Shown piece by piece: positions 18,953 to 21,821 of a stretch of DNA of 36,690 nucleotides. This DNA comes from Armatimonadota bacterium. Lineage in GTDB: Bacteria > Sysuimicrobiota > Sysuimicrobiia > Sysuimicrobiales > VGFF01. The notes beneath the pieces are model-generated. The model was not told where the DNA came from. It did not search any database and saw only the letters and a list, made by a program, of their open reading frames with translations. The stretch covers positions 1-36,690 of the forward strand of contig VGFF01000002.1 in the NCBI GenBank assembly GCA_016868955.1, written 5' to 3'. A program made the position numbers and the translations under genes. Position 1 is the stretch's first letter, and the number at the start of each line of letters is the position of its first letter.

Positions 18953-19777
18953 ATGCGGAGCCCCGCCGCCGTCCGGCATGCGGACGTGGCGATCACCGGC
19001 CGGATCGAGGTCCGCGATCTGCGGAAGCGGATCGGCGACAAGGACGTGCTGCGCGGCGTATCCCTCACGGTCGAAGCCGCGGAAACGGTCGTCATCCTCG
19101 GTCCCAGCGGCTGCGGCAAGAGCGTCTTGCTAAAGCACCTCGTCGGATTGCTCCGACCGGACACCGGCGAGGTCCGCTACGACGGCCACTCGCTGGCGGC
19201 GCTGTCGGAAGGCGCGATGGAGGCGTTGCGTACGCAAATCGGGATGGCTTTCCAGAGCTCGGCGCTCTTCGACTCGCTGACCGTCGCCGACAACGTGGCG
19301 TTTCCGCTGCACCGCCATCGCCACCTCGAGGAAACCGCGATCGAGCGGATCGTCGCCGAGAAGCTCGAACAGGTCGGGCTGGCAGGAACCGAACGGCTGA
19401 TGCCGGAGGAGCTCAGCAACGGCATGCGCAAGCGCGTTGGCATCGCGCGGGCATTGGCCCTGAATCCCAAGGTAATCTTCTATGATGAACCCACGGCCGG
19501 CCTCGATCCGGTGACGGCAAGAACCGTGGACGGAGTGCTGAAACGGGTGCAGCGAGACATGCACTCGACCGCCATCGTGGTTACGCACGACCTCATGACG
19601 GCGTTCTCGGTCGCCGACCGGATCGCCGTCATGCAGTCCGGCGCGTTCGTCGAGCTCGGAACGCCCGAAGCGATCGAGGCGTCCGAGGACGAAGCCGTCG
19701 TCGAGTACCTGCGCACCGGCGTCCCGCGCCGCCCTCGGGACGCCGGCAATACGACAGGCCCGGAGGCCGGACGATGA
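18953..19777 (+). CDS. mlaF: MlaF-family MCE ABC ATP-binding protein
   Basis: Walker A GPSGCGKS, FQSSALFDSLTV.DNV, signature LSNGMRKR, YDEPTAGLDP, VTHD. The exact start is uncertain. Confidence 0.92.
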   Translation: MRSPAAVRHADVAITGRIEVRDLRKRIGDKDVLRGVSLTVEAAETVVILGPSGCGKSVLLKHLVGLLRPDTGEVRYDGHSLAALSEGAMEALRTQIGMAFQSSALFDSLTVADNVAFPLHRHRHLEETAIERIVAEKLEQVGLAGTERLMPEELSNGMRKRVGIARALALNPKVIFYDEPTAGLDPVTARTVDGVLKRVQRDMHSTAIVVTHDLMTAFSVADRIAVMQSGAFVELGTPEAIEASEDEAVVEYLRTGVPRRPRDAGNTTGPEAGR

Positions 19778-21141
19778 GAACGGAAGCGAAGATCGGCTTC
19801 TTCGTCGTGATCGCGGTGATCCTCTTCCTTGGACTGTTCGCGTTCCTCGGTCGAGGTCTGCTCCAAGAGCCGGGTTACCGTCTGGACATCCTGTTCGCGA
19901 ACGGCGAGGGCACCGCGCCCGGCGCACCGGTCACGATGGCGGGCGTGCAGATCGGCACGATCCGGTCGATATCTCTGACTGCCGACAACCAAGTGCTCGT
20001 CGTCGCGCGCGTCCGCCCCGGCGTCGAGATCCCCGTCGGGTCCCGGTTTCTCATCGGTTCGACGACGCTGCTCGGCGGGCGCACCGTGCAGATCGTGCCG
20101 GGCACGCCGATCCGCGGCTACTATAGCGCCGGCGCCCGCATCCGCGGCGAGGTGCCGCCGACGATCGGCCAGCTCTTCGAACGCGTCGCCCTCGTCGCCG
20201 ACGACCTTCGCGACGCGATCGCCGACGCGCGCGTCGTGTTGAACACCACCAATCGCGCCGTCGAATTGGTCGGGCGAACGATCGACTCCGTGAACGCCTT
20301 GGCCAGCGACGAACGCCTGCGCAGGTCGCTGCTGCGCAGCGTGCAAAACGTCGAAGCCGCGACGGCCCGCTTCGATCGGATCGTCTCGTGGACGGGCGCG
20401 CCCGTCCACGAGACCGCCGAGAACTTCCGCGTCATGTCGCGGGACCTGGCCGCTCTGGCGGCTCAGCTGCAGCGATTCGGAGATTCGGTCGTCGGCGACG
20501 GCGAGGTATCGCGCCAGATCCGCACGACGGTGACGTCGATCGAGTCGACGGCGCGGCGCATCGACGAGATGACGCGCACGCTGCAGGCAGGCCTGATCAA
20601 TGAGAAGCAGATGGGCGAGGTACGGGGGCTCATCGCCGACACTCGCAAGACCGTGCAGCAGGCCGGCGAGACGTTGAAGCAAGCCGACACGGCGATCGAT
20701 CAGGTCGCCGGCGTGGTCCGGCACACGACGACAGCGATCCCCATGTTGCCGAGCCTGCGGTTCACGTACGAGCTGTGGTGGGACAGCGCCAGCGCCCTAC
20801 GGCACGACATCGACGTCTGGGGCGCACGCGGTCAGCCGCGCTACTACCGGTTCGGGATCCACGACCTCGGGCGCGGGAACTTGCTGCAGGTCCAAGCCGG
20901 ATTCCGGCTGGACGATGCGCTCGGATGGCGGCTCGGCATCGTCGACTCGCAAGTGGGCATCGGCCTGGACTACCAACTCGCGCCGCGGTGGACGACCATT
21001 TTGGACTTGTACAACTTCAACCGCCTGACGCTGAACTTCGCTTCGTTCTACGAGTTCCAGCAAGGGTTCTCGCTGTCGCTGCACGTGCGCAACATCCTCA
21101 TCGCGCCGAGCGTCGGCGTCGGGCTGCAGTACCGCTACTAG
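19774..21141 (+). CDS. mlaD: MCE/MlaD protein with long helical stalk and C-terminal beta-strand (barrel-like) domain
   Basis: EAKIG.F N-terminal TM; MCE domain (F....G...GAPV.MAGV.IG.I; LLGG..V.IVPG); about 200 aa of heptad-rich helix; about 130 aa of amphipathic strands ending GVGLQYRY. Confidence 0.88.
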   Translation: MRTEAKIGFFVVIAVILFLGLFAFLGRGLLQEPGYRLDILFANGEGTAPGAPVTMAGVQIGTIRSISLTADNQVLVVARVRPGVEIPVGSRFLIGSTTLLGGRTVQIVPGTPIRGYYSAGARIRGEVPPTIGQLFERVALVADDLRDAIADARVVLNTTNRAVELVGRTIDSVNALASDERLRRSLLRSVQNVEAATARFDRIVSWTGAPVHETAENFRVMSRDLAALAAQLQRFGDSVVGDGEVSRQIRTTVTSIESTARRIDEMTRTLQAGLINEKQMGEVRGLIADTRKTVQQAGETLKQADTAIDQVAGVVRHTTTAIPMLPSLRFTYELWWDSASALRHDIDVWGARGQPRYYRFGIHDLGRGNLLQVQAGFRLDDALGWRLGIVDSQVGIGLDYQLAPRWTTILDLYNFNRLTLNFASFYEFQQGFSLSLHVRNILIAPSVGVGLQYRY

Positions 21142-21160
21142 CCGGGCAGGCGGCGCAGCG

Positions 21161-21199
21161 AAAAAACGCGACGGCCCCGCGTTGCCGCGGGGCCGTCGC
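21161..21199 (-). terminator. Intrinsic terminator for the minus-strand small basic gene
   Basis: 14-bp perfect stem (21168-21181/21186-21199), GCAA tetraloop on the minus strand, followed by GTTTTTT. Confidence 0.88.
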
Positions 21200-21223
21200 A
21201 ACCGATCCGTCAGGAAGAAGGTG

Positions 21224-21321
21224 TTACTTCTTCTTCTTGGCGGGGGCCTTCTTCGCCGTCGTCTTCTTGGCGGAGGTGGACTTCTTGCGGGGGCCTTCTT
21301 GGCCGCCTTCTTCATCGCCAT
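21224..21321 (-). CDS. 32-aa histone H1-like Lys/Ala-rich microprotein, frameshifted by one missing base near 21287
   Basis: AAAGGAGG RBS, ATG 21321, TAA 21226-21224, terminator downstream. Restoring one C gives MAMKKAAKKAPAKKSTSAKKTTAKKAPAKKKK*; the span is 98 nt instead of 99. Confidence 0.75.
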
Positions 21322-21449
21322 GGCTCGGTTCCTCCTTTCAACAAGATTGATTGATCTTTTACGCTACAGTAAGCAAATTTCCTGCTCCTCGCGCAAAAAC
21401 TTTTATTTGCCACCTCGAAATTCGCCCGGTCACTGTCGCGGGACTCGAT

Positions 21450-21821
21450 TCACTCCGGTGCGTCCGGCAAACGAGCGGCGTGATACATCGCGATGCCGCG
21501 ACCGGCGACCGCCGACGACAGGTACCCGAGCACGAACAGGAAGATCGCTTTCATCAAGAGCTGCAGGCTCACGTTCAGATCGGACGCTGCGGCGTTCGCG
21601 TTCTCACTCGGCACCGGCGAGGTCGCCGTCGGCACACCCAAGCGCGCCATCGCCGGTCCACTGAATTCCTGGTACGCAGTGAGGAACACGAAGATGAGCA
21701 GCCCCACGCCGATCACGAAGACGAGCAGCCCCAGCAGACGTCCCGGGCCATCCGCCCCTCCACGGTCGCCGTTCCCCGCGCCTTGAGGCCTCGTCGCTAC
21801 GTCGTCCACGCACCTCTCCAC
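21450..21821 (-). CDS. Hypothetical two-TM membrane protein
   Basis: Two hydrophobic helices (LLGLLVFVIGVGLLIFVFL; LLMKAIFLFVLGYLSSAVAGRGI). Start is GTG 21821 or GTG 21809. Confidence 0.7.
   Translation of the reverse strand: MERCVDDVATRPQGAGNGDRGGADGPGRLLGLLVFVIGVGLLIFVFLTAYQEFSGPAMARLGVPTATSPVPSENANAAASDLNVSLQLLMKAIFLFVLGYLSSAVAGRGIAMYHAARLPDAPE

Follow-up and report, generated by a model that had tools for sequence, protein, structure and literature searches.

Can a lysine-rich run of some thirty codons, interrupted by a single missing base in the sequence as written, be a genuine gene, and if so, what might its product do? The question is raised by a locus on the minus strand of the window, by which we mean throughout the whole stretch of DNA that was analysed (36,690 nucleotides of contig VGFF01000002.1, from an Armatimonadota bacterium). 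A first-pass annotation had claimed here a self-contained small gene missed by gene annotation, made up of an AT-rich leader, a perfect ribosome-binding site, an ATG, AAG repeats, a TAA and a strong terminator. Every one of these elements was located on the minus strand, in the order AT-rich leader, perfect AAAGGAGG, ATG, AAG-rich codons, TAA and 15-bp terminator, and the gene is self-contained in the sense claimed, with its own Shine-Dalgarno (SD) sequence, ORF and terminator, and with orthologues that are intact. The features of the locus are as follows.

21359..21382, minus strand: motif GGAAAT-N-CGTAA, conserved and presumably promoter-like in function, within the AT-rich leader (~21341-21420)
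21331..21338, minus strand: SD sequence AAAGGAGG, with a 9-nt spacer to the ATG
21321-21319, minus strand: ATG start codon of the microprotein
21224..21321, minus strand: Lys/Ala-rich microprotein CDS; the window has 98 nt, and the base present in public assemblies makes it 99 nt, or 32 codons plus TAA
21286..21287, minus strand: site of the one-base deletion, a C absent on the minus strand, that is, a G absent on the plus strand
21226-21224, minus strand: TAA stop codon, end of the Lys frame
21161..21200, minus strand: intrinsic terminator shared with the convergent gene (hairpin 21200-21167, 15 pairs of which 13 are G-C, loop of 4, T6)
21100..21272, unstranded: duplicated segment of ~175 bp, 88% identical to G000:C26:5081-5258 (L023 1501-1678)
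19774..21141, plus strand: convergent MlaD-domain gene, the last of an MlaE/ABC ATPase/MlaD row (Pfam MlaD, 1.1e-15), given for context only

The leader has a GC content of 0.39 at 21340-21419 and of 0.45 at 21300-21379, the value for the whole 2.10-Mb genome being 0.675. Within it, the blocks AGCAGGA(G/A)TTC and GCGTA(A/T) are kept in relatives according to the DNA alignment, and the spacer between them is variable. The motif GGA(A/G)(A/T)T-N12-16-CGTA(A/T), which precedes the small gene, has 11 matches in the genome versus 3 in a reversed-genome control, and may resemble promoters of the ECF type; a scan of the window region with the sigma-70 consensus returned 0 sites. The perfect AAAGGAGG occurs in 25 copies on both strands of the genome, 14 of them followed by an ATG or GTG 5-10 nt downstream. 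Judged by eye, the 13 other starts with this perfect sequence include several with signal-peptide-like N-termini, one SufB-like and one ferredoxin-like. At the other end of the gene, the terminator begins after 23 nt past the TAA, and an 80-nt tail folds at -42.6 kcal/mol. All six frames of the 2.10-Mb genome yielded only two 20-residue windows with at least 8 Lys, the small-ORF locus itself and the C-terminus of uS13. With only two Lys-dense windows and only 14 perfect SD-start pairs genome-wide, the locus is more than chance composition.

As written, the ATG opens a frame that reads MAMKKAAKKAP and then continues as a spurious Arg/Pro ORF of 174 aa (20797..21321), which runs past the terminator and enters the neighbouring gene in antisense; this is the passage through GCA-AGA into an Arg/Pro run beyond the terminator that had been described at the outset. 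The second frame reads RKKSTSAKKTTAKKAPAKKKK* and lacks a start codon. One added base on the minus strand converts GCC-CCC-GCA-AGA-AGT into GCC-CCC-GCC-AAG-AAG-T, and the repair postulated by the first-pass annotation, a single C that restores a 32-aa peptide, is borne out to the residue, as public assemblies encode exactly that peptide, with GCC-AAG in place of GCA-AGA. Parts of the interval 20800-21800 are contained in 20 public runs, the best of which are lake-water metagenomes (word shares 0.96, 0.95 and 0.91), and none of these 20 is an RNA run. The deletion site was inspected on assembled contigs: in the Logan contigs of four out of four public runs (X1, X2, X3 and X7) one extra G stands behind plus-strand position 21286, each time supported by the entire depth of the covering contig (12.4/12.4 in X1, 9.24/9.24 in X2, 6.4/6.4 in X3 and 3.1/3.1 in X7). 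The corresponding records 4, 12, 20 and 27 have, besides this single gap, 0, 0, 0 and 2 other differences from the window, with identity over up to 597 nt. The four runs come from four coded studies, X2 belonging to a separate study dated 2025, a number to be read with the provisos that X1 may be the source sample, that the lake studies of 2018 may stem from a single campaign and that contigs drop rare variants.

Since the extra base is present in the covering contigs of all four runs, the deletion in the window is very probably an error of assembly or consensus, or at most a minor variant, and we are correspondingly confident that the gene is real and intact in the population. That the deletion is instead real in the strain, as a fresh pseudogene, a programmed -1 shift or transcriptional slippage, is highly improbable: the window itself does bear the deletion and a minority variant would be compatible with the contig data, but all four covering contigs show the base at full depth in otherwise identical sequence (save the two differences in the contig of X7), 13 orthologues and 5 complete metagenome copies require no shift, and the frame as written leads through the terminator and antisense into the next gene. 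Among the causes proposed earlier for the frameshift, the data thus favour a sequencing or assembly indel, and a programmed or otherwise biological -1 shift at AGA finds no support; with the frame intact in the public assemblies, programmed shifting is unnecessary. The locus serves as a worked example of how one assembly indel can conceal a gene of ~30 codons.

The plus-strand neighbours of the small gene encode MlaE, an ABC ATPase and the MlaD-domain protein; upstream on the minus strand lie a 123-aa ORF without family, a gene of the phosphorylase superfamily and a BatA/VWA/DUF58/MoxR row. The f4 genomes have, upstream of the small gene, a stretch of about 1.1 kb that the window lacks; it separates the small gene from the homologue of the window's 123-aa ORF and has a co-directional gene at its end. 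The convergent MlaD-like gene is the only neighbour that stays constant. In the window, the product of this convergent gene, 455 aa long, has an aromatic ...GLQYRY/F tail that is kept in 12 of 13 relatives and is reminiscent of the C-termini of outer-membrane barrels. A search for related loci with this MlaD-like protein as query found nothing. The duplicated segment spans the 3'-terminal part of the small ORF, the terminator and the final MlaD-like codons; on C26, another contig of the same genome, the copy provides an 85-aa ORF (L023 1624-1881, minus strand), which has a signal peptide and PAKK motifs, with its 3' end and its terminator. Because this stretch is repeated in the genome, the public contigs, among which both copies are present, break between 21191 and 21233.

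The first-pass annotation had proposed to look at the syntenic locus in relatives, and an intact ORF was indeed found in the same place in 13 of 13 carrier genomes. A DNA search over 41 genomes (G000 and 40 relatives) gave matches in 17; the small-ORF region (query 562-678) was matched in 9/9 f4 genomes and in G006 (f7), the remaining matches being chance-level stretches of 25-52 nt. A profile built from five orthologous peptides was then run over 94 genomes, which constitute the entire available order and phylum set, and matched 13 of them once each (f4 12/12, f7 1/1). It had no match in the 80 other genomes of the phylum (f5 0/34, f2 0/22, f3 0/23, f6 0/1), where the negatives of f5, as well as the HU counts given below, include G014 and G059, both flagged as unpublished. 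The window's own genome (f1) scored nothing, since the deletion splits the ORF. The orthologues are 27-30 aa long, and the restored 32-aa peptide aligns with them at the same site. In all 13 relatives the convergent MlaD-like gene is present, with its stop 53-103 nt from that of the small ORF, and a G+C-rich hairpin follows the stop; the sequence of this hairpin differs between genera, and within g14 its stem shows a compensatory change (GGGGGTGCCGG/CCGGCACCCCC vs GGGGGCGCCG/CGGCGCCCCC). An SD-like purine block precedes the start in all 14 loci (the window and 13 genomes), the start being ATG except for GTG in G006; the arrangement GGAAAGGAGGTA(G)CCGAGCC-ATG is kept in the 12 f4 genomes, and G006 has the weaker GAAAGGGGGAG-GTG. 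An exact-pattern scan of metagenome contigs added six copies of the g14 type, five of them complete and intact (29-30 aa, two with an in-frame AGC insertion) and the sixth cut by the contig end. The small ORF is thus an orthologous gene kept at one site in three families (f1, f4 and f7) of an uncultured phylum.

The variation among these orthologues is that of a coding sequence. In the DNA alignment the differences in ORF length are all multiples of three (+3, -9, +3, +6 and +3 nt), the -1 of the window excepted, a pattern that repeats with a period of 3 nt would also favour through 3n slippage even without selection. The stop codon switches between TAA and TAG and its position is retained. 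In G006, the most distant orthologue, the Lys pattern is retained and the Ala codons vary, 18-33% of the shared codons being synonymously changed. In g14 the frame extends from stop to stop over only 35-64 aa, so that no longer protein is possible there. Taken together with the constant spacing between SD and start and with the synteny, this preservation of frame argues that the small ORF is protein-coding and conserved as such.

The product does not fall into any described family that we searched. Scans against Pfam and NCBIfam, which covered orthologues and the as-written Arg/Pro frame of the window, returned no fitting family: the best scores, in G006 and G037 only, were 7-14 bits against cut-offs of 40-135. 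The models of the histone-H1-like protein Hc2 scored in G006 only (PF07382 with 11.2 bits vs 40, NF038052 with 9.7 vs 135) and had no match in the other scanned orthologues; NF038053, for the Burkholderia-type H1-like proteins, reached 11.4 bits vs 80, and NF050153, for the Rv3852 family, 13.9 or 7.0 vs 100. Ribosomal protein models of Pfam and NCBIfam had no match at E up to 10. In Rfam only sub-threshold matches were obtained, the RNA sX6 (RF02225) scoring 20.6 bits at window 21149-21321, against a gathering threshold of 40, and 17.9 bits at the C26 paralogue; an identity with sX6 was rejected as sub-threshold, and the match was treated as one of low complexity plus terminator. When 1.84 billion representative proteins were searched with the profile, two matched at E up to 0.001, of which one is a 58-aa entry that represents the small gene called from a false upstream start and reads through the SD, and the other a 412-aa protein with an AKK-repeat N-terminus. 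The ESM Atlas offered unnamed clusters only (29-38 aa, scores 0.92-0.93, with recognition below the reliable range), and no free AKK-repeat peptide of ~30 aa turned up in a literature search of limited extent. Judged by sequence, these free Lys/Ala-repeat micropeptides form a family that is new and has so far gone without annotation; it is akin to the lysine-rich H1-like proteins and lies outside the curated families, and the resemblance to H1 is one of composition and not of membership. Genes of ~30 codons are at or under the length limit of gene callers, and this family appears once, with the wrong start, among 1.84 billion representatives.

Three simpler identities were considered and set aside. 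HU occurs in 90 of the 94 genomes, every carrier included, so that the peptide is no substitute for the main nucleoid protein and a replacement of HU was rejected. That the peptide is a tail split from a larger protein received no support, as the 80 non-carriers contain no scoring AKK stretch (0-2 candidates at first look, none of which passed). A leader peptide or attenuator was rejected because the next gene is convergent and nothing co-directional lies past the terminator.

What, then, might such a peptide do? The restored product has 32 residues, 14 of them Lys, with a computed mass of 3386 Da and a computed charge of +13.5; it has no signal peptide and is too short for a folded domain, which would leave it to act only as a flexible polycation. 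We picture a stand-alone gene of ~180 nt in which a promoter-like motif and a perfect SD precede 32 codons and a bidirectional terminator follows them; it would be transcribed and translated into a 3.4-kDa Lys/Ala-rich peptide, presumably in some abundance. By its composition, a free polycation of this kind would neutralise charge on polyanions, and its most likely target would be nucleic acid, namely nucleoid DNA, as for the H1-type tails on HU/Hlp, Ku or Hc2. We put the chances that the peptide binds nucleic acid in the nucleoid as a polycation at about even, a view suggested by its composition. It is encouraged by the contact that PAKKA-type tails reportedly make with DNA in the Ku and Hlp proteins of M. 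smegmatis (PMC3553676), the nearest documented behaviour, and by the small peptide ScvA, for which a condensing effect on Coxiella chromatin has been speculated (PMC13568565); it is tempered by the H1-like profile scores, all of which are under their cut-offs, and by the HU that every carrier already possesses. A role at the ribosome, as a lineage-specific small basic protein associated with ribosomes or RNA, similar to the smallest ribosomal proteins or to an Ala/Lys-rich extension supplied in trans, strikes us as unlikely. Size and charge would fit, the SD is very strong and belongs to one of only 14 perfect SD-start pairs of the genome, the only other Lys-dense stretch of the genome is the tail of uS13, and an Ala/Lys-rich extension of ~25 aa has been reported on uS19 in Parcubacteria (PMC9297842). 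Yet no ribosomal family matched at E up to 10, and ribosomal protein genes adjoin the small gene in none of the 14 loci. A low-complexity repeat is, moreover, unlike the fixed sequences of the known small ribosomal proteins. The same likeness in composition could equally direct the peptide to another polyanion or to a granule, such as polyphosphate or the surface of a storage granule, since the H1-like AlgP has a reported link with how polyphosphate granules are spaced in Pseudomonas (PMC9239181); with no genes for polyphosphate or storage polymers nearby and no profile match, we regard such a target of the kind reported for AlgP-type proteins as decidedly improbable.

The gene has a further property, which is the near absence of synonymous change. 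Six g14 species have an identical CDS of 87 nt, with 0 of 29 codon columns varying, whereas 186/300 columns of the MlaD-like gene, 34/80 of HU and 19/35 of bL34 (43-62%), counted where all six species agree in the residue, use more than one codon. Across the 28 pairs of eight g14 species, synonymous change amounts to 19/793 in the small ORF versus 3418/9986 in the neighbour, counts that are not independent since the species are related. Between the window and the f4 representatives, 0-1 of 17-21 codons are synonymously changed, compared with 42-54% in the neighbour. The last ~30 nt of the 5'UTR are equally invariant; variation is seen in the flanks, in the spacer of the promoter motif and in the loop of the terminator. 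The minimum free energy (MFE) folds of the regions listed below pair the SD with a CCUCC element.

21226-21361 of the window, minus strand: folded region with predicted SD-CCUCC pairing
L033 1461-1593: folded region with predicted SD-CCUCC pairing
L026 1498-1630: folded region with predicted SD-CCUCC pairing

The g14 version of the element, GGUACCUC, lies in the 5'UTR (z = -3.9, the pairing being uncontrolled), and in the folds of the window and of g8 the SD pairs with the Thr-Ser codons ACC-UCC (z = -1.3 each, the pairing likewise uncontrolled).

As the synonymous sites are far more conserved than coding demands, selection may act on the RNA besides the peptide or instead of it. Taken to its end, this would mean that the transcript is functional itself, as a dual-function or self-regulating RNA (for instance through sequestration of the SD by CCUCC), and that the peptide is secondary. 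The frozen codon columns, the low pairwise synonymous change, the invariant 5'UTR next to a variable promoter spacer and terminator loop, and the predicted pairing of the SD, be it with GGUACCUC or with ACC-UCC, all speak for such an RNA. We nonetheless consider it unlikely as the principal function: no Rfam family was matched at threshold, the other three folds have z values of only -1.3 to -1.7 with an uncontrolled SD pairing, part of the freeze could be due to strong expression or to the avoidance of AAA runs, the counts stem from related species, and the SD, start, stop position and Lys pattern kept in the divergent G006 argue for translation. A combination of the two, in which the ~180-nt unit is dual-purpose and supplies a free H1-tail-like polycation of the nucleoid or ribosome along with an RNA sequence under selection, is a possibility that we hold open at a low level of confidence; such selection could arise, for one, if the mRNA were sensed, by way of the SD/CCUCC pairing, by its own peptide or by the ribosome. 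The synonymous freeze is an unexplained feature of the gene and a concrete pointer, open to experiment, to selection at the RNA level in a small coding gene. Our estimates for the five readings of function and frameshift, namely nucleoid, ribosome, granule, transcript and real deletion, leave a small remainder for none of them. Should the peptide that we favour as a nucleic-acid-binding polycation be abundant, descriptions of how these uncultured lake bacteria package or shield nucleic acid would so far lack one component.

The gene can be set beside three kinds of known systems. The likeness to sX6 of Xanthomonas, a 341-nt 'sRNA' (RF02225), is that of a small transcript first missed as a gene. 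The product of sX6 is a protein of 80 aa that has a signal peptide, and it was demonstrated by tagging and mass spectrometry (PMC3300014, PMC5559785). The peptide of the window differs from this protein in having no signal peptide, and the score of the match is under gathering.

ScvA, the nearest stand-alone counterpart, is a basic peptide of ~30 aa that is rich in Arg and Gln rather than built of Lys/Ala repeats. Compared by description and not by sequence, it shares with the microprotein that it is a free small peptide with a gene of its own, but it is developmentally regulated and belongs to an intracellular pathogen, whereas the microprotein comes from a free-living lake lineage. Its role as chromatin condenser in the small-cell variant of Coxiella burnetii is a speculation for which PMC13568565 cites Heinzen et al. 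1996.

The H1-like proteins (Hc2, the Burkholderia-type proteins, Rv3852, the tails of Hlp/HupB and Ku, and AlgP) have in common with the microprotein its composition, its AKK/PAKK repeats and its strong positive charge, and both would be expected to be disordered. They are, however, proteins of 145-240 aa or tails on folded domains, whereas the microprotein is a free peptide of 27-32 aa. Hc2 in particular has 165-237 aa and many lysine-rich pentamers (PMC2848022), a length range below which the 27-32 aa of the microprotein fall. PAKKA/AKKA repeat tails are reported not only to contact DNA but also to promote end-apposition in mycobacterial Ku and Hlp (PMC3553676), and the microprotein, if abundant, would indicate that bacteria can have such lysine-rich 'tails' in the form of free peptides.
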